From positions 1 to 40,367 of IMG/VR virus record IMGVR_UViG_3300046045_000002: a DNA stretch of 40,367 nucleotides; one strand, written 5' to 3'. Positions 1,608 to 40,367 of this stretch are shown piece by piece. The stretch's first letter is position 1. Every line of letters starts with the position of its first letter. Origin of the DNA: a virus. The position numbers and the translations under genes are program-made. The notes under the pieces are model-generated. The model saw only the letters and a program-made list of their open reading frames with translations. It was not told the origin of the DNA and ran no database searches.

Positions 1608-2426
1608 ATGATCGACCTCACCCCCGAGCAGATCGCCGCCGCTAAGGCGAACGACCTCGACGCCGTGACCGCTGTGGTTCAGGCCACGGAGGAAAGGGTT
1701 CAGCAGCTCGCCCGGCAGTACGCCACCACCGCTGGACGCGTGAACGCCGACCTCGCCGAGGAACTCGCGCAGATAGGCCGTATAGCCGTCTGGGAGTCCC
1801 TTAGCCGCTTCAACGGCCACGCGGTGGCCCAGTTCTTCACCTTCATAGACACGACGCTTAAGGGCGTCATGAGCGACGCTCGCAAGGTCGAGACCCGCCC
1901 GGGTGTGTCCCGCTCCGTCGCCGCCGATTTTGAGACAGCGCTCACGATGGCGGGCGGCGACCCGTACGACGCGGAGCGCGTAGCCGCTAGCCCCGCCATG
2001 GGCAAGCGCAAGATGAGCCCCGAAATGGCGTACGCCGCCCGGCTGTCGTGGCAAGGGGTCGAGTACCTCGACGCCCCGATGAACGGCGAGGGCGACGAAA
2101 CGATCACGCTCGGGGAGACGCTTGCCGATCGGGTCGGTCTTCCGGATGACCTGATCGAGGACGCCGATATCGAGTCGTTGCGCAAGCGCGAAATCCGCGA
2201 CCGGGTGCGCGGCATTGTCGGCCGCATGGGGGCACAGCGCCGGTACGTGTTGTCGGGTACCTACGGCCTCCCGTTCGCCCCGTTCTACGGCGAGGGACAC
2301 GATGCCGAAATGGCGGAAGACCTCGGGGTTCCGCGCGACCGCATCAAGACCGTTCGCAGCCTCGCTAAGACGGCATTCCGTAAGACGTGGCTTGCCGGTG
2401 CGCAGTCCGACGCCGACGCCGCCTAA
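1608..2426 (+). CDS. Sigma-70 family (ECF-like) RNA polymerase sigma factor
   Basis: 272 aa. Region-2-like IGRIAVWESLSRF and region-4 HTH-like EMAEDLGVPRDRIKTVRSLAKTAFRK. GGAG upstream of the ATG. Confidence 0.7.
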   Translation: MIDLTPEQIAAAKANDLDAVTAVVQATEERVQQLARQYATTAGRVNADLAEELAQIGRIAVWESLSRFNGHAVAQFFTFIDTTLKGVMSDARKVETRPGVSRSVAADFETALTMAGGDPYDAERVAASPAMGKRKMSPEMAYAARLSWQGVEYLDAPMNGEGDETITLGETLADRVGLPDDLIEDADIESLRKREIRDRVRGIVGRMGAQRRYVLSGTYGLPFAPFYGEGHDAEMAEDLGVPRDRIKTVRSLAKTAFRKTWLAGAQSDADAA

Positions 2427-5974: not shown

Positions 5975-7720
5975 GTGTACGCTCGGGGCATGACACCTTC
6001 AGTCCGCGCGGCCGTCGAGGTCGCCAGCGTTCACGGGGCGGCAGACGTAGCAGCTATCTACGTTAGGCAGTCCCGCAAGAAAGCTGACGGTTCCGAGGCA
6101 TCCCCCGCCGTTCAGGTCGAGGAATCCGAGAAAAAGGCTATCGCCCTCGACCTGCGGTCGCTGCCCGTCTACTCGGACGTCGGCATTTCCGGCTACGACC
6201 CGAACGCGGAGCGCCCGGCATTCGAGCGCATGCTCAAGGATGCTGCCGCCGGTAAGTTCTCGAAAATCATCGTGTACTACATGAGCCGATTCTCTCGGCA
6301 AGAGCCGCTAGAGGTGCTCGCAGTAGTCCGCGAACTCTGGTCGTACGGAATCACCATCATTTCCGTGACCGAGGGCGAATTCCGGCCCGACGACTTCGGC
6401 AGCCTCATTCACCTCCTGGCCCGACTGGAAGGAAACCACAAAGAGAGCAAGCTGAAATCAATCAACGTCAAGAAGACGAAACAAAAGGCGCGCAACCTCG
6501 GGGGCTACATGGGCGGACCACCGCCGTACGGGTTCCACACGCGCAAGGTGCTGAAAGACGGCGTGGCCATTCAGGAACTTGTGCCCGACTGGAAGGTGCA
6601 AGCACCGATCGTGCGTGACCTAGTCGCCTACATGCTGGAGCACCGCAACGACCCGGCAGACAAGTTCGGAAAGCACCCGGCGTCAATCCTCGGCGCGTGC
6701 GAATGGCTGAACGCCCACCCGCAAGCCAAACCCCGCCGTGGCGAGACGTGGAAGGACGCGAGCGTTACCCGACTGCTCATCGACCCCCGGCTAGCCGGAT
6801 TCGCCGCCGACTACGTGTACGAGAACGCAGCCGACGAGGAACGGCGCCGGAAGACACGTGCCTACGTAATCCAGCGGGACGACGACGGGCACGAGATCAT
6901 CGGAAACGAAGCAATCGTGACCCCCGCTGACTGGTACACGCTGCAAGAACACCTGCGCAGCCGGGCGAACAAAGGCCGTGCCTCGAACGGCGAATCACTG
7001 TTCGGCGGGTCGGGATTGGTCGACTGCGAGTGCGGGAAGCTGTTCACGTTCTTTTGGGCGCGCAAGACAGACGTCAAGAACTACCGGTGCCCGCGCACCC
7101 GTGTGGACGACGTCGGCCGGACGCACGACGGCGGGAACAGCATTTCGGCGCTGCACCTCGAAGACTGGGTTGCCCGACGCATCTTCGCGCTGATCACCAC
7201 ATCGGCGGGCGACGAGGAAACGCAAGAAATCCTGCTAGAGGCGACTAGGCGCTACGGACGGCGCGTCGAGGCACCGCAGACGGCGGGCGAGCGCACAGAG
7301 CTGGTCCGCGCACGTGCGGCCGACACACAAGCGCTGAACGACCTATACGACCGCGAAGAAGCGGGCGACTACGACGACCCGATCGGCCGAAAGCGGTTCC
7401 GTGACCGCAAAGACAAGATCTTGACCCGGATCAAGGCAGCCGAAAGCCGCCTAGCCGAACTGGACACGATCGAGACACCGGCGCTACCTATCGAGCAGTG
7501 GCTACCCGAGGACGCCGACGCCGACCCGATCGGCCCGGGGTCGTGGTGGCACGGCGCAAGCCTCGACCAGCGTCGGGACATGGTGGCGCTGTTCGTAGAG
7601 CGCATCACGGTCCATAAGGCGGCAAGCAAGGGCGGCAACTACAACGGCGTGGTGTTCAACGCTGGCAGCCGCGCGGAGATTACGTGGGCGAGGCCGCACG
7701 ACGACGAGGAAGACGCCTAG
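5975..7720 (+). CDS. int: Large serine recombinase (integrase)
   Basis: 581 aa. N-terminal resolvase-type motif AAIYVRQSRKK, zinc-ribbon-like CECGK...YRCPR and a C-terminal coiled-coil-like region. The start is either GTG 5975 or ATG 5990. Confidence 0.9.
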   Translation: MYARGMTPSVRAAVEVASVHGAADVAAIYVRQSRKKADGSEASPAVQVEESEKKAIALDLRSLPVYSDVGISGYDPNAERPAFERMLKDAAAGKFSKIIVYYMSRFSRQEPLEVLAVVRELWSYGITIISVTEGEFRPDDFGSLIHLLARLEGNHKESKLKSINVKKTKQKARNLGGYMGGPPPYGFHTRKVLKDGVAIQELVPDWKVQAPIVRDLVAYMLEHRNDPADKFGKHPASILGACEWLNAHPQAKPRRGETWKDASVTRLLIDPRLAGFAADYVYENAADEERRRKTRAYVIQRDDDGHEIIGNEAIVTPADWYTLQEHLRSRANKGRASNGESLFGGSGLVDCECGKLFTFFWARKTDVKNYRCPRTRVDDVGRTHDGGNSISALHLEDWVARRIFALITTSAGDEETQEILLEATRRYGRRVEAPQTAGERTELVRARAADTQALNDLYDREEAGDYDDPIGRKRFRDRKDKILTRIKAAESRLAELDTIETPALPIEQWLPEDADADPIGPGSWWHGASLDQRRDMVALFVERITVHKAASKGGNYNGVVFNAGSRAEITWARPHDDEEDA

Positions 7721-8115: not shown

Positions 8116-8188
8116 TGACGCGTAGCTCAGTCGGCAGAGCAAGGGATTGTTAATCCCTGGGTCGTTGGTTCGAGTCCAACCGTGTCAG
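8116..8188 (+). tRNA. tRNA-Asn (anticodon GTT)
   Basis: Cloverleaf folded by hand: acceptor tgacgcg/cgtgtca, anticodon stem aggga/tccct with loop ttGTTaa, T-arm gttgg-ttcgagt-ccaac. Confidence 0.85.
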
Positions 8189-8265
8189 CGGAGCGTACGA
8201 CGACCCCGTTTGAGGGGCTACGGGTGGCATGCACTCCCCAACCGCAGAGGCGGTTTCGTACGCAA

Positions 8266-8342
8266 CGGCATATAGCTCGAAGCGTGGTTAGAGCGCCGGT
8301 CTGATAAACCGGAGGTTCCAGGTTCGACCCCTGGTGTGCCGA
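8266..8342 (+). tRNA. tRNA-Ile (anticodon GAT)
   Basis: Acceptor cggcata/tgtgccg, anticodon stem ccggt/accgg with loop ctGATaa, T-arm ccagg-ttcgacc-cctgg. Confidence 0.85.
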
Positions 8343-8452
8343 CTGGTGGTAGCCCGTAAGGCCGTGACTGGCATGACTGGCACCACCCTGGGTGAAACCG
8401 GCCCTCACTGCCCGACTAGTCATCGGGTAAGCGGGCGGCGAGTAGCCCTCAA

Positions 8453-8529
8453 GCCGCGTTAGCCCAATCGGTAGAGGCGTCGGTCTTAGGAACCGAAGGT
8501 TAGGGGTTCGAATCCCTTACGCGGTACCA
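8453..8529 (+). tRNA. tRNA with anticodon TAG (Leu by anticodon), short 5-nt variable loop, encoded CCA
   Basis: Acceptor gccgcgt/acgcggt, anticodon stem tcggt/accga with loop ctTAGga (anticodon 8487..8489), T-arm agggg-ttcgaat-ccctt, discriminator A, 3-prime cca. Confidence 0.75.
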
Positions 8530-13301: not shown

Positions 13302-14020
13302 TGAGTGACCTATCCAGCCGCGCACAGCGGCTACACGTGGCCGAGAACCGGCAACGGCCTTTCGAGGGCATGGAATTGCGCGCCCTCGACAACGGGACCG
13401 GCGGGGAAAACCTGCGGTTCACCGGTTACGCCTCGGTGACGAACGCCCCCTATGAAATGGAAGATTTCCTAGGGGAGTACACCGAGCGAATCATGCCCGG
13501 GGCGTTCACTCGGTCCATAGCCGAGGGCGCCGACGTGCCGTTCAAGGTGAACCACAGCGGCATGACCCTTGCCCGTACGAAGTCGGGAACGATGCGCCTA
13601 GCCGAGGATTCGCGCGGGTTGCACGTCGAGGCCGACCTAGACCCGACTAACCCCGAAGTGCAGTCGCTACGCAGCGCCATGCAGCGCGGGGATATCGATG
13701 AAATGAGTTTCGCGTTCCGCGTGAACTCTCAGGTTTGGTCCCCGGATTGGTCGCAGCGCGACATTACCGAGGTCGACCTACACAAGGGGGACGTAAGCGC
13801 TGTCAACTATGGCGCAAATCCTGCTACGGCGGGTGCGGTACTGCGCTCACGTGACATTGCGCTGTTGCACGCCCGAGGCGCCATCAGCGCCGAACAGGCC
13901 GAGGCGCTCGCGCGCATGATCCGGCAGGGCGAGGACGCCCGTTCCGAGGCCGAACCCGAGGCAAAGCCCGGCGTCGACCTTTCCCTATTCGCGACGCGAC
14001 TACGCGCGCTGAATTTCTAA
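13301..14020 (+). CDS. Prohead (capsid maturation) protease, HK97 family
   Basis: 239 aa. FTGYASV...GAFTRS...KVNHSGMTLARTKSGTMRLAED pattern. Position between portal and capsid genes. Confidence 0.8.
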   Translation: MSDLSSRAQRLHVAENRQRPFEGMELRALDNGTGGENLRFTGYASVTNAPYEMEDFLGEYTERIMPGAFTRSIAEGADVPFKVNHSGMTLARTKSGTMRLAEDSRGLHVEADLDPTNPEVQSLRSAMQRGDIDEMSFAFRVNSQVWSPDWSQRDITEVDLHKGDVSAVNYGANPATAGAVLRSRDIALLHARGAISAEQAEALARMIRQGEDARSEAEPEAKPGVDLSLFATRLRALNF

Positions 14021-14022
14021 CT

Positions 14023-14045
14023 CACCTACTAGTCACTAGTAGGTG
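14023..14045. repeat. 23-bp palindrome copy 6 (centre tca)
   Basis: Starts 2 nt after the protease stop and ends 8 nt before the capsid ATG. Confidence 0.95.
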
Positions 14046-14053
14046 CTTCCCCG

Positions 14054-15415
14054 ATGGAGCACATTTTGAATAAGCGCGAAATGGTCGCCGACCTACTTGC
14101 GAAGCGTTCCGCTCTAAAGACCGAGCTTGACGGCCTTGTCGACGGCGCCACCGCCGAAAAGCGTTCTCTTTCCGAGGATGAGTCGGCCCGGTTCGACAGG
14201 GGCGAGGCGGAGATTCGGGCGTTCGATGAGCGCGTTAAGGAACTCGACTCGCAGATCAAGGCCGACGAGGCTGCGGCCGACATGGCTAAGCGCTATGCCG
14301 CGCCTCGCGTCGAGTCCGTCAAGGAACCGGAGATCTACCGTTCCGGCGTCGGTGGCCGTTCCTACTTCCGCGACCTACACCTAGCGCGAAGCAAGGGTGA
14401 CCGCGACGCTTCCGACCGGCTTGTTCGGAACAACCGGGGCCGTGCGGCCGACCTCGAACAGCGTGCTATCAGCGGCACTAATGGCGCCGGTGGAGAGTTC
14501 ATTCCGCCCCTATGGCTGGAGAACGAGTTCGTTAAGTACGCGCGTCCGGGTCGCATTACCGCGAACCTTTCGCCCTCCTTCCCGCTGCCCCCGGGTACTG
14601 ACTCGATCAACGTCCCGAAGGTTTCCGGCGGTACGGCGGTTGCTGTGCAGTCGACGCAGAACAGCGCCGTTCAGCAGACCGACCTAACCACGACCTCGAT
14701 TTCGTCCACTGTGACGACCGTTGCGGGTGGCCAGACGGTTTCCCTACAGCTGATCGAGCAGTCGCCTCTTAACATCGATGATGTTGTTCTGGCCGACCTT
14801 GCCGCCGACTATGCGCGGCAGCTCAACCTACTCGTGCTGAGTGGTTCGGGCACCTCGGGGCAGCCGACCGGCATCATGACCCTTGCGGGCACGAACGCTA
14901 TCGACTACAACCCCGCGACCGTCACCGCGCAGAACTTCTACAGCGCGGTTGCGAACGCCATTCAGACGGTTCACACGAACCGATTCCTCCCGCCGGACAC
15001 GATCATCATGCACCCGCGCCGGTGGGCGTGGCTGGTTGCTCAGGCCGACTCTTCCGGTCGTCCGCTGGTCGTTCCGCACGCCGGTGGTCCGTTCAACGCC
15101 ATGGCCGACCCGGGCGCCGTTGCCGCTCAGGGCTACGTCGGCACCATGCAGGGTCTGCCGGTCTACGTCGACGCGCTGATCCCGACCAACCTGACCGCCG
15201 ACACCGGCACCGCCGAGGATGCGGTGATTGTCGGCCGGTTCGCCGACCTCATGCTGTGGGAGTCGCACATTCGGGCCGAGGCGTTCGAGCAGACGTACTC
15301 GAACAACATGAGCGTTTTCATCCGGCTGTACAACTACATGTCGTTTCAGCCCGCCCGTTACCCGAAGTCGCTTTCTGTGATCACCGGTAAGGGTCTCCAG
15401 ACGCCGACGTTCTAA
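14054..15415 (+). CDS. Major capsid protein (HK97 fold with an N-terminal coiled-coil delta domain)
   Basis: 453 aa. Charged helical N-terminus followed by a capsid-like body. Position after the protease. Confidence 0.85.
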   Translation: MEHILNKREMVADLLAKRSALKTELDGLVDGATAEKRSLSEDESARFDRGEAEIRAFDERVKELDSQIKADEAAADMAKRYAAPRVESVKEPEIYRSGVGGRSYFRDLHLARSKGDRDASDRLVRNNRGRAADLEQRAISGTNGAGGEFIPPLWLENEFVKYARPGRITANLSPSFPLPPGTDSINVPKVSGGTAVAVQSTQNSAVQQTDLTTTSISSTVTTVAGGQTVSLQLIEQSPLNIDDVVLADLAADYARQLNLLVLSGSGTSGQPTGIMTLAGTNAIDYNPATVTAQNFYSAVANAIQTVHTNRFLPPDTIIMHPRRWAWLVAQADSSGRPLVVPHAGGPFNAMADPGAVAAQGYVGTMQGLPVYVDALIPTNLTADTGTAEDAVIVGRFADLMLWESHIRAEAFEQTYSNNMSVFIRLYNYMSFQPARYPKSLSVITGKGLQTPTF

Positions 15416-15424
15416 GCCCTTTAG

Positions 15425-15949
15425 GTGGTGGCCGTGGTTACTCATTACGACCGTTTGCGAAACGCTGTTCGCCGGTCTATGAACCGCCACGGCCACCACC
15501 GAGGCCATGCCGTCAACCGCTTCGTTCACTCGCACCGACACGGAAAGCGGCCGACCAAGCCCCGAGGGCACAAGCCGCATGCGGCGCATAAGAAGCACCA
15601 CAAGCGGCGGCATTACCACCTAAAGCATCACCGGCACCTCAAGCACCATTACCACCTAAAGCACAAGCGCCATTACAAGCACCGGCGGCACGTGCTGCAC
15701 CACCGCCGACACCTGCGGCACCTTGCGAAGCACCTTCGGCACGTTAAGAAGCACCGCCGACACCTCAAGCATCATCGGCACGTGATCCACCACCGGAAGC
15801 ACCGCCGACACACGACGCACCGCCACTTGCACCGCAAGCACAAGCGGCACACGACGCACCACCGACGGCGGCACATACTCCACCGCCGACACACCACACA
15901 CCACCACCGCCGGGGGTCGACACACCGACGACACCGCCGTTACCGCTAG
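15425..15949 (+). CDS. His/Arg/Lys-rich low-complexity basic protein (174 aa from GTG 15425; alternative ATG at 15479)
   Basis: The only long + strand ORF in the 540-bp gap between the capsid and connector genes. Third codon positions are mostly C or G. By hand count 55 H, 41 R and 18 K, with one acidic residue. Confidence 0.55.
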   Translation: MVAVVTHYDRLRNAVRRSMNRHGHHRGHAVNRFVHSHRHGKRPTKPRGHKPHAAHKKHHKRRHYHLKHHRHLKHHYHLKHKRHYKHRRHVLHHRRHLRHLAKHLRHVKKHRRHLKHHRHVIHHRKHRRHTTHRHLHRKHKRHTTHHRRRHILHRRHTTHHHRRGSTHRRHRRYR

Positions 15950-15957
15950 GGGTTCGC

Positions 15958-16860
15958 TTGACCACACAGACGATTTACTTTGTCGGGCAAGACGTCGGCC
16001 TCACGTGCACCCCGCTGGACGACAACGGCAACGCCACCACGGGCGCTCTTAGCGTCTCTGTGACCGTCACGAGCCCGACCGGGGCCACCACCACCCCGGC
16101 AGTCTCCTCGGCCGGTGGCGGGGCGTACAGCGCCGTTGTGCCGTCCGTCTCGGCGGGCACATGGCTGGTTCGATGGACAGCGACCGGCACGAACGGCACG
16201 GTTCCCGTCGGTTGGGCGTACGAGGATCAGTTCACGGTCCGCCCGCAGGGCGTAGAGCAACTGGTCGACCTAGTCAGCGTGAAGAAGCACCTGAACATCC
16301 CGCTGAACGACAACCGGCAAGACGAGGAGTTGCAGGGGTTCATACTTACCGCCGCTGATCAGGCGCGCGACGTGTGCGGGCCCTTCCTGCCGGAACAGCA
16401 CACACAGTTTTTCGATGGGGGACTGACCACTCTCCAGCCGGATTGGCTGCCCGTCGCCTCGGTGCAGTCCGTCACCGAGTATTACGGCCTATCGGCGTTC
16501 GTCCTCACGGAACAGCCCCTCGGGGCGCAGATGAACGCGTTCGCTTTCACAGCGGACTACGACACGGGCCAACTGACCCGGCGCACGTTCGGCGGCGAGG
16601 CTGCGCTGTTCGCCCTCGGAACGAAGAACGTGAAAGTCGTGTACACCGCCGGAACCGGCGGGCAAATCCCGTTCACTATCCGCCTCGGCGCCCTCGAACT
16701 GATCCGGCACCTATGGCAGCAGACGCAGAACGGCGGACGGCCTAAGTTCGGTTCCGCTGGAATGGATGGCGAGTCCATGGGCGTGCCGATGGGTTTTGCG
16801 CTGCCTGATCGCGTGATCGAGCTGTGGGGGCCGAAGCGCCGACCCCCGGGAATCGCGTAA
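15958..16860 (+). CDS. Head-tail connector/adaptor (gp6-like) with an N-terminal Ig-like extension
   Basis: 300 aa. The motif QLVDLVSVKKHLNIPLNDNRQDEELQGFILTAADQARDVCG is typical of gp6-like adaptors. The first ~95 aa are Thr/Ser/Gly-rich with a beta-strand pattern. Confidence 0.6.
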   Translation: MTTQTIYFVGQDVGLTCTPLDDNGNATTGALSVSVTVTSPTGATTTPAVSSAGGGAYSAVVPSVSAGTWLVRWTATGTNGTVPVGWAYEDQFTVRPQGVEQLVDLVSVKKHLNIPLNDNRQDEELQGFILTAADQARDVCGPFLPEQHTQFFDGGLTTLQPDWLPVASVQSVTEYYGLSAFVLTEQPLGAQMNAFAFTADYDTGQLTRRTFGGEAALFALGTKNVKVVYTAGTGGQIPFTIRLGALELIRHLWQQTQNGGRPKFGSAGMDGESMGVPMGFALPDRVIELWGPKRRPPGIA

Positions 16861-39487: not shown

Positions 39488-40367
39488 ATGCGCATCTATC
39501 AACACACCATTGCGGGCGACCTTGTTCACGTCTATGTGCCCGAGGACGTTGCCGACCTCGACGTGTTCCTTCGGTGGGCGCAGGATGCCGACCGTGTGGG
39601 CCCTATCGCCCTCGACACCGAGACGACCGGGCTCGATATCTACTCGCCTGCCTATCGGCTGCGTACGGTCCAGTTCGGCAACGCGCGGGAAGCGTTCGTA
39701 ATCCACTACGAGCGTGGGGGAGAGTTCGCGCGGGCAGCCGTCGAGGTGCTGCGTAACGCCCGCCGGTTCCTGATCCATAACGGCCCGTTCGATTGGCTAG
39801 TCCTCGACCGGCACGCCGGTATTCCGCTGGAGAGCCTCGCCCCGCGCACGCGTGACACAAAGATCCTGTCAACGCTGGTCGACCCCCGACAGCCGCAAGA
39901 GGGTGGCATAGGGACCGGCCTCAAGCCGGTTTCCGGGCACTACGTCGACCCGTCGGCGCCGGACACGCAAGGGGACCTTACGGCCGTCTTCCGGTCCCTG
40001 GGGCTCACTAAGGCCACGGGGTGGGCCGGTATCGACCTCGACCACCCCACCTACAACCTCTATGCCGGTCTTGACGTCATCCTTGCTGCCCGGGTCGAGC
40101 CTCGCCTCACAGCGGAACTCACCCGCCTCGGGGTGCGTGACGCCCTGGTGCAGTACGAGCACGAGATAGCCCGTATCTGCGCGCACATGCAGCGTGCTGG
40201 GATGGTGCTGGATATCCCGTACACGCGGAACCTGAACGATTCCCTCGGCGTCGAGGCGCGCGGCTATGCCGAATCTGCCCGCCGGTACGGCGTCGAGAGT
40301 GTGAACAGCACCCGGGCGATAGCCGAGGCGCTGATAGGCATGGGGGAGGTTCTCACCGAACGGACGG
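39488..40367 (+). CDS. DNA polymerase I (family A), N-terminal part with the 3-5 exonuclease domain; runs off the window end and continues at position 1
   Basis: ATG preceded by caaggggagac. Exo I-like IALDTETTGLD. The ORF is open to the end of the window and in frame with 1..1095. Confidence 0.9.
   Translation, partial: MRIYQHTIAGDLVHVYVPEDVADLDVFLRWAQDADRVGPIALDTETTGLDIYSPAYRLRTVQFGNAREAFVIHYERGGEFARAAVEVLRNARRFLIHNGPFDWLVLDRHAGIPLESLAPRTRDTKILSTLVDPRQPQEGGIGTGLKPVSGHYVDPSAPDTQGDLTAVFRSLGLTKATGWAGIDLDHPTYNLYAGLDVILAARVEPRLTAELTRLGVRDALVQYEHEIARICAHMQRAGMVLDIPYTRNLNDSLGVEARGYAESARRYGVESVNSTRAIAEALIGMGEVLTERT
40241..40367. repeat. 127-bp exact duplicate of 1..127 (circular-assembly overlap)
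   Basis: Base-for-base identity by direct comparison. It lies inside the polymerase ORF. Confidence 0.95.

Follow-up and report, generated by a model that had tools for sequence, protein, structure and literature searches.

The window analyzed here is the whole 40,367-nucleotide stretch of the IMG/VR virus record IMGVR_UViG_3300046045_000002 (positions 1 to 40,367). Between its major capsid and head-tail adaptor genes lies an open reading frame (ORF) for a protein dominated by histidine, arginine and lysine, which comparison with related loci identifies almost certainly as a real protein-coding gene of the head module. To judge from the sequences of its homologs, the constant property of the protein family is that of a polycation and histidine is a variable, often dominant addition, since the termini, the scarcity of acidic residues and the Arg+Lys fraction are kept while the His content varies. 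Its most probable role is that of a polycation that binds DNA during the assembly or packaging of the head.

Comparative evidence for the gene

Related loci were gathered with the capsid protein and the adaptor as anchors (80 from IMG/VR, 80 from GTDB genomes and 20 further ones from IMG/VR), and all of them were scanned in six frames for His-dense ORFs. Such ORFs occur only on the strand of the capsid gene and only just 5' of the adaptor gene. An earlier note on this DNA, made from the sequence alone, had proposed to look for similar ORFs at the same position in related phages, and about 15 distinct homologs, syntenic and in frame, were found in metagenomic phage contigs and in prophages of Catenulispora (loci L085 and L152) and Kutzneria (L038, identical to L091, from Kutzneria buriramensis). 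The same head-tail adaptor gene directly follows each homolog, with a junction of 9–15 nt. In loci L165–L167, the adaptor is 90% identical and the basic protein contains 59 His. In L005, L006 and L179, where the capsid protein is 76–81% identical, the basic protein is 125–126 aa long and contains 16 His and 31–34 Arg. A DNA-pattern scan of IMG/VR for the C-terminal motif gave 32 matches, which added one new member (L201); since Gln was also permitted in the pattern, most matches were short ORFs that had arisen by chance.

The N-terminal motif reads THYDRLRxAVRRSM in close relatives and LRRHLRRVRSQH in distant members, and the internal sequence HRHTLRAHR is common to several members. RRYR directly before the stop codon (…HRRHRRYR) ends 11 of 15 members, and the remaining ones end with RRYGH, HRW(H/R), YRFR or NYRRHRR. 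The C-terminal motif of the window protein reaches shuffle z-scores of 5–9 against L030, L034, L180 and L167. Order-specific similarity, measured against residue-shuffled partners, significantly exceeds that due to composition, with a z-score of 27 for L167, 16 for L005, and 5–7 for L030, L031, L034, L170 and L180. All members are linked transitively, the weakest being L017 and L069, whose membership rests partly on synteny.

The pattern of nucleotide changes is that of a coding sequence. All 27 indels in seven pairs, aligned at the nucleotide level without regard to frame, are multiples of three, and it is through such indels that the length of the core differs between relatives. The sole 1-nt indel in the alignment of the window with L167 falls 3' of the stop codon. 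Substitutions between these two sequences number 32, 31 and 65 at codon positions 1, 2 and 3, and an excess at the third position is present in seven of seven pairs. The ratio of nonsynonymous to synonymous substitution rates (dN/dS) is 0.17–0.46 in nine pairs. The codon usage is like that of the other genes of the phage (CAC 82% versus 87%, AAG 100% versus 92%).

The earlier note had argued for real coding, and this comparative evidence bears it out, unlike the ORF length and third-position GC content that the note had relied on. The ORF that it described, from GTG at 15425 to a TAG stop at 15949, is present on the plus strand and has 174 codons. However, at least 174 open codons also occur in 24% of dinucleotide-preserving shuffles of the 542-bp gap between the capsid and adaptor genes, which keep its T-poor composition. 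The third-position GC content is 0.78, within the 0.78–0.80 of the neighboring genes, but the antisense frame is about equally high: GC fractions at codon positions 1, 2 and 3 are 0.74/0.38/0.78 in the sense frame versus 0.77/0.39/0.72 in the antisense frame. Because shuffles and the antisense frame match them, neither length nor third-position GC can decide whether the ORF is coding.

The same observations could be read as signs that there is no gene, the ORF being a by-product of C/A-rich, T-poor DNA, or the antisense ORF being the real one. Both public annotations of the contig indeed chose the minus strand, with a Val-rich ORF of 89 aa in Logan and an 83-aa "hypothetical protein" of JGI. 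We regard this reading as extremely unlikely. The indels keep the sense frame, and the substitutions concentrate on the sense third position, which is the first codon position of the antisense ORF, so that antisense coding is contradicted. The antisense ORF was rejected as a gene on this ground and because of stop codons in most relatives. In a search of 5.8 billion protein clusters, its product found only itself. In contrast, the sense start, stop and terminal motifs are kept across loci with 61–70% GC and family genes with 62–77% GC. The antisense calls represent a systematic annotation failure for genes of extreme composition.

Its own start, GTG 15425, was doubted in the earlier note, which named ATG 15479 as an alternative. 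GTG 15425 is indeed not favored, and the alternative can be discarded. The most likely start is GTG 15434, giving a product of 171 aa. An ATG ("MATHYD") stands exactly at the equivalent position in L165–L167, and AGGTGGTG precedes the start in both the window and L167. The 15 codons 5' of ATG 15479 are conserved at the protein level in five orthologs, and therefore ATG 15479 is not the start.

The 171-aa product contains 32% His, 24% Arg and 11% Lys, with Arg and Lys together making up 35%, and one acidic residue. It has a calculated mass of 22.2 kDa, a pI of about 12, and a net charge of approximately +62 at pH 7 and +108 at pH 5. A script reproduced exactly the earlier hand count of 55 His, 41 Arg and 18 Lys in the 174-aa ORF (65.5%) and its single acidic residue, D9. 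The claimed repeat units HLKHH(R/Y)HLKH and RHTTH are present, as is the fourfold CACCGCCGACAC (15701, 15752, 15800 and 15881), which occurs nowhere else in the window; all four copies are in frame and encode HRRH. Tandem repeats of 18 and 36 bp span positions 15611–15683 (Tandem Repeats Finder, TRF). Up to 24 His fall within a window of 60 residues, with many HxH, HH and HxxxH spacings. The coding strand is C/A-rich, as had been noted (C 40%, A 25%, G 24%, T 11%), and the GC and AT skews of the region reach -0.33 and +0.50, respectively.

Arg and Lys make up 23–40% and acidic residues 0–6% of every family member. The His content varies from 13% in L005 and L179 (L006 is similar) and 21% in L201 to 28–40% in the others. 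In the GC-richest loci (L030, L034, L036 and L038, with genes of 72–77% GC), Lys is replaced by Arg and His stays high. The family layout, as deduced from the sequences, is a conserved N-terminal Arg-rich helix (predicted), a fast-evolving, repeat-expanding core and a conserved C-terminal end. A single-sequence AlphaFold2 prediction placed a short helix at residues 4–18, over the conserved N-terminal motif, and one 106-residue helix over the core, with a mean predicted local distance difference test score (pLDDT) of 76.5 (up to 97) and a predicted template modeling score (pTM) of 0.36. No amphipathic or heptad periodicity was found in the core, which rules it out as a coiled coil or a membrane-active amphipathic helix.

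The earlier note knew of no described phage head-module protein of such composition, and Pfam, PHROGs, the PDB and GenBank phages indeed contain no match. No Pfam family matched the window protein at E ≤ 0.01; four of five relatives had no Pfam match at E ≤ 1, and L005 had three unrelated sub-threshold ones (E 0.11–0.73). Five family members had no PHROGs match at E ≤ 0.1, and no chain among the PDB sequences matched at E ≤ 1. There was likewise no match in tblastn searches of GenBank phages with the ORF and the family, in a word-indexed search of the 5.8 billion protein clusters (15 billion sequences) with the single sequence and the family alignment, in a full phmmer search of 1.84 billion representatives, or in exact-sequence look-ups of 10 family members. 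These profile and protein negatives exclude only close relatives, because HMMER corrections hide distant members: in a local test, the default bias and null2 corrections removed all members except L005 and L006.

A megablast search of GenBank phages with the region from the capsid gene through the ORF to the adaptor gene found nothing, and neither did tblastn of the adaptor protein against 50,697 GenBank phage records; the lineage is therefore known only from metagenomes and prophages. A metagenome scan with the adaptor gave only three loci, all of the L017 type. The literature searched contains no mention of His-rich actinobacteriophage proteins. As far as we could find, the family is new in being unseen by current annotation, and a His/Arg composition has not been described in a siphophage head module. 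The antisense calls, combined with the composition-bias filters of HMMER, keep the family out of sight in protein collections. Having escaped notice among billions of proteins, it suggests that other phage proteins of extreme composition may be overlooked likewise.

Proposed function and its alternatives

The position of the gene is constant, inside the portal-protease-capsid-adaptor block. No promoter of its own and no convincing terminator were found at the gene borders, which speaks against an independent moron-type transcription unit; the gene is therefore expressed with the late head operon. The gene is accessory, not essential. Non-redundant loci with an adaptor identity of 52% or more fall into three groups: the basic gene is present in about 19, the adaptor gene directly follows the capsid gene in six (L007 and L040 are examples), and an acidic protein alone is encoded in the slot in about 11.

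These small acidic helical proteins, with the N-terminus MNPINYA(K/R)GL..., are encoded either alone in the slot or immediately 5' of the basic protein, and have no match in Pfam or PHROGs. Both genes are present in the lineages of L030, L031, L034, L036–L039 and L069. Perhaps the acidic protein works with the polycation as its partner or chaperone; it could also be a substitute that fills the slot instead.

We favor the interpretation that the basic protein is an accessory component that binds nucleic acid as a polycation and acts in or on the head, as a kind of phage "protamine". It probably binds polyanions or nucleic acid. Our preferred, although tentative, model is that of a counter-ion packaged inside the head. 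The His/Arg-rich protein would be made together with the head proteins, and its Arg and Lys charges would bind polyanions, above all DNA. The N-terminal helix, electrostatic attraction to the acidic delta domain of the capsid protein, or both could bring it into the procapsid. The polycation would stay with the packaged genome as a protein counter-ion and be ejected together with it. Histidine would make the charge tunable, from about +108 at pH 5 or beside phosphates to about +60 at cytoplasmic pH, so that the protein would hold DNA tightly in the virion and less tightly once ejected. The position in the head block, the predicted conserved N-terminal helix and the acidic delta domain of the capsid protein point toward a link with the head. 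We hypothesize that the N-terminal motif is a candidate docking or targeting element.

This motif can be compared with the C-terminal tail of the prohead protease, a conserved DLSL(F/Y)xxRLRAL in the window and in L006, L007, L012, L017 and L030. It resembles YDRLRNAVRR of the basic protein, and both are terminal amphipathic helices that contain Arg. The C-terminus of the HK97 protease reportedly mediates encapsidation.

Several points weigh against a protein load inside the head. Relatives with capsid proteins 58–72% identical lack the gene, which is thus dispensable for the lineage, and tblastn detected it in none of the isolated GenBank phages. Complete contigs with and without the gene are equally long (40.1–40.7 kb), and the capacity of the capsid is therefore not tuned to an internal protein load. 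To our knowledge, HK97-like siphophages with delta-domain scaffolds do not carry bulk internal proteins. Neither a protease cleavage site nor a targeting function could be shown in the His/Arg-rich protein, and its resemblance to the protease tail is a lead only, as the match is too short for statistics. Likewise, the long core helix is only a hint, being predicted from a single low-complexity sequence without an alignment. Because equal genome length and dispensability argue against a bulk internal load, our confidence in the preferred counter-ion model is limited, and an essential DNA-condensing role is disfavored, since equally long relatives lack the gene.

The main rival is a packaging or assembly chaperone like gpFI of phage lambda, that is, a non-virion late protein that bridges terminase-bound DNA and the prohead or otherwise assists head assembly. 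Its basic core would hold DNA, and its conserved termini would contact the capsid or the terminase. In favor of this rival, the genomic position corresponds to that of lambda FI, which is flanked by the genes for the major capsid protein and for head-tail joining, and other small charged proteins fill this slot in relatives. The patchy accessory distribution also fits gpFI, which is a bypassable helper (PMC13595911). Nevertheless, we consider a gpFI-like role unlikely: the protein has no similarity to gpFI, PDB chains or PHROGs, and a +60 protein would bind any nucleic acid, which does not obviously fit specific bridging. Moreover, gpFI is not a low-complexity polycation. Rather improbable is an effector that is packaged at low copy number, delivered with the DNA and active in the host instead of condensing DNA in the head. 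It might shield the genome from nucleases and defense systems, or bind host RNA, polyphosphate or nucleoid DNA. An accessory, fast-evolving and patchily distributed gene is typical of host interaction, and the conserved N-terminal element could target the protein as in the T4 internal proteins or P1 DarB (PMC9024508, PMC7697877). However, low-complexity composition speaks against a specific inhibitor, and the protein has no similarity to known anti-defense proteins, PADLOC and anti-defense libraries not having been searched.

A metal-binding role is disfavored by the family pattern, and we rate it as highly unlikely. The protein would bind Ni, Zn, Co or Cu for storage, as a buffer or as a metallochaperone, like Hpn or the His-rich tails of HypB, SlyD and UreE; in a variant, it would be a Zn-dependent DNA condenser like mammalian protamine P2. 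Such a role could account for the 32% His with its many HxH, HH and HxxxH spacings and for the 28–40% His kept in the very GC-rich loci L030, L034, L036 and L038. Yet His falls to 13% in L005 and L179 and 21% in L201, where the termini and the Arg/Lys content are kept. Also missing are acidic and Cys residues, the usual companions of metal sites. Metal cations are repelled by a strongly cationic chain, and nothing about a location among head genes suggests a need to store metal.

The usual view is that small cations and polyamines neutralize the DNA packaged in phages. In its strongest form, which we regard as doubtful, the preferred counter-ion model would describe a "protamine" of soil-actinomycete phages, a His/Arg polycation in an HK97-type head that neutralizes part of the packaged DNA with a charge set by pH. 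If this were true, the protein would be fully protonated in the virion or in acidic soil and half-discharged in the cytoplasm, giving a stable particle outside and genome release inside. It would then be the first known case of a protein counter-ion of DNA in a siphophage, and the natural equivalent of the pH-switchable His-rich peptides designed for gene delivery. A head-module protein with a charge of +60 to +110 would also alter the counter-ion picture for some siphophages, with respect to packaging, stability and delivery. Family members are present in the cultivable hosts Catenulispora pinistramenti NL8 (L085), Catenulispora sp. GAS73 (L152) and Kutzneria buriramensis DSM 45791 (L091).

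Genome context and neighboring features

The window ends in an exact terminal direct repeat of 127 bp, and therefore represents a circularly closed or terminally redundant complete genome with a unit length of 40,240 bp. The gene for a family-A-like DNA polymerase runs across the junction, with 302 codons at the 3' end and 344 codons at the 5' end. The annotated genes include those for TerS, TerL, tail proteins, tape measure protein, endolysin, deoxynucleoside monophosphate (dNMP) kinase, exonuclease and primase. At about 40.2 kb, the phage is a temperate soil siphophage of an actinobacterium whose whole genome is contained in the window, and the basic protein is encoded by a late gene. The temperate lifestyle is deduced from the sigma factor and integrase genes (Table 1), and the phage may redirect host transcription. 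The nearest isolated phages are mycobacteriophages, with capsid identities of at most 45%, and the nearest cellular matches are prophages of Catenulispora, Streptomyces, Streptacidiphilus and Kutzneria.

The genes flanking the ORF are those named in the earlier note, an HK97-type capsid gene 5' and a head-tail adaptor gene 3'. Genes for an S78 prohead protease and the portal protein lie 5' of the capsid gene. The adaptor is unusually long, and its N-terminal approximately 95 residues are rich in Thr, Val and Ser and Ig-like in appearance. Directly after the capsid gene of L034, and also in L024, L031 and L036, lies a gene for an Ig-like protein of 111–137 aa, which the window phage lacks. It probably decorates the capsid, and it weakly matches the C-terminal part of the major-tail-protein family phrog_9522 (E 2e-5).

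A perfect palindrome with 11-bp arms, CACCTACTAGT-C-ACTAGTAGGTG, ends 8 nt 5' of the capsid ATG. The only Shine-Dalgarno-like AGGTG lies in its 3' arm, and the palindrome could form a hairpin controlling capsid translation or be an operator-like site. The window also contains three tRNA genes, for Asn, Ile and Leu, which rules out that phage tRNAs supply the His, Arg and Lys codons of the basic protein. ARAGORN missed the tRNA-Ile, probably due to an enlarged D-loop. CTA makes up 22% of the Leu codons in the large genes of the phage, which is unusual at 63.5% GC and matches tRNA-Leu(UAG).

Table 1. Features of the gene, its surroundings and related loci; positions refer to the window unless a locus is named.
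Feature	Position	Strand	Basis
His/Arg/Lys-rich protein, coding sequence including TAG stop	15434..15949	+	composition, ortholog start, indels in multiples of three, dN/dS, codon usage
Shine-Dalgarno-like AGGTGGTG, 7/8 matches to AGGAGGTG, ends 3 nt 5' of start codon	15423..15430	+	sequence; kept in L167
Conserved N-terminal motif HYDRLRNAVRRSMNR (LRRHLRRVRSQH in distant members), predicted short helix	15443..15487	+	alignments, AlphaFold2
Variable low-complexity His/Arg/Lys core, residues 49-154, with tandem repeats and four CACCGCCGACAC	15578..15895	+	sequence, TRF
Conserved C-terminal motif HHHRRGSTHRRHRRYR, stop codon directly after	15899..15946	+	family alignments
Val-rich antisense ORF called by public annotations, not a gene	15656..15925	-	Logan 89 aa, JGI 83 aa
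Major capsid protein, HK97 fold, acidic N-terminal delta/scaffold domain	14054..15415	+	Pfam PF05065, E 2.7e-23
Head-tail adaptor, 300 aa, invariable 3' neighbor of the family	15958..16860	+	phrog_442, E 2e-18; synteny
RNA polymerase sigma factor	1608-2426	+	phrog_15865, E 2e-46
Large serine integrase	5975-7720	+	phrog_95, E 5e-67
C-terminal tail of prohead protease	13976-14017		
Palindrome 5' of capsid gene	14023-14045	+	
tRNA genes Asn(GTT), Ile(GAT), Leu(TAG)	8116-8529	+	
tRNA-Ile	8266-8342		Rfam, 58.9 bits
Terminal direct repeat	1-127 and 40241-40367		
Other family members	L016-19, L172-174; L030, L031, L034, L180; L036-039; L069, L170, L201		
Acidic "NPINYA" protein	L034 5782-6102; L009 5390-5647; L012 5374-5643; L069 1508-1837; L176; L184		
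Ig-like protein after capsid gene	L034 5433-5768		

Comparison with known systems

By kind, the predicted protein would fit among viral polycationic nucleic-acid-binding proteins, without homology to any named system. Adenovirus pVII and baculovirus P6.9 are protamine-like core proteins that bind and neutralize the packaged genome (PMC10548178, PMC5899202). These eukaryotic viruses co-assemble DNA with protein, whereas tailed phages first build the shell and then fill it with naked DNA. Mammalian protamine P2 has a composition of Arg and His and binds Zn. All three are short, have almost no acidic residues and are dominated by Arg, or by Arg and His in the case of P2, and the viral ones are encoded among structural genes. 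The phage protein has the same kind of composition, with 35% Arg and Lys, 32% His and one acidic residue in 171 aa; in contrast to P2, its His content is higher and it has no Cys. No homology to a protamine or core-protein family was detected in Pfam or the PDB, where the HMMER bias filters lower the sensitivity.

Short N-terminal targeting sequences bring the T4 internal proteins and P1 DarB into the head; these proteins are delivered with the DNA and counter restriction (PMC7697877, PMC9024508). The family described here is likewise accessory, and its conserved N-terminal helix (predicted) may be a counterpart of the targeting sequence. However, T4 and P1 are myophages, T4 with a separate scaffolding core, and the proteins IPI–IPIII and DarB are folded and of ordinary composition. 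No homology to IPI–IPIII or Dar proteins was found for the five family members in PHROGs at E ≤ 0.1.

In the gene order of lambda, FI follows the major capsid gene and precedes the head-tail joining gene, and the ORF of the window lies in the equivalent slot (Table 1). Suppressor mutations can make the helper gpFI unnecessary, and it is not essential in vitro (PMC13595911). It differs from the phage protein in having a folded C-terminal domain and not being a polycation, and no similarity to gpFI (PDB 2LSM) or its PHROG was detected (PDB at E ≤ 1; PHROGs).

Helicobacter Hpn and histatin-5 share a His content of about 30% or more with the phage protein, which has 55 clustered His in 174 codons, and histatin-5 combines His with Lys and Arg. 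His is, however, not conserved among the orthologs, ranging from 13 to 40% while Arg and Lys stay at 23–40%. Hpn lacks the Arg/Lys load and contains Gln, Cys and Glu, and histatin-5 is a secreted human peptide of 24 aa. The H1-like tails of actinobacterial HupB and HupS are polycationic, repeat-rich, disordered DNA binders. They are basic and of low complexity like the phage protein and come from the host phylum, but are rich in Lys, Ala and Pro, lack His and are fused to an HU fold, and no homology to them was detected. None of the named systems is homologous to the family, as membership fails wherever homology is testable. As analogies, the closest systems would be protamine-like viral core proteins and P2 by composition, the internal proteins of T4 and P1 by the logic of loading, and gpFI by position.

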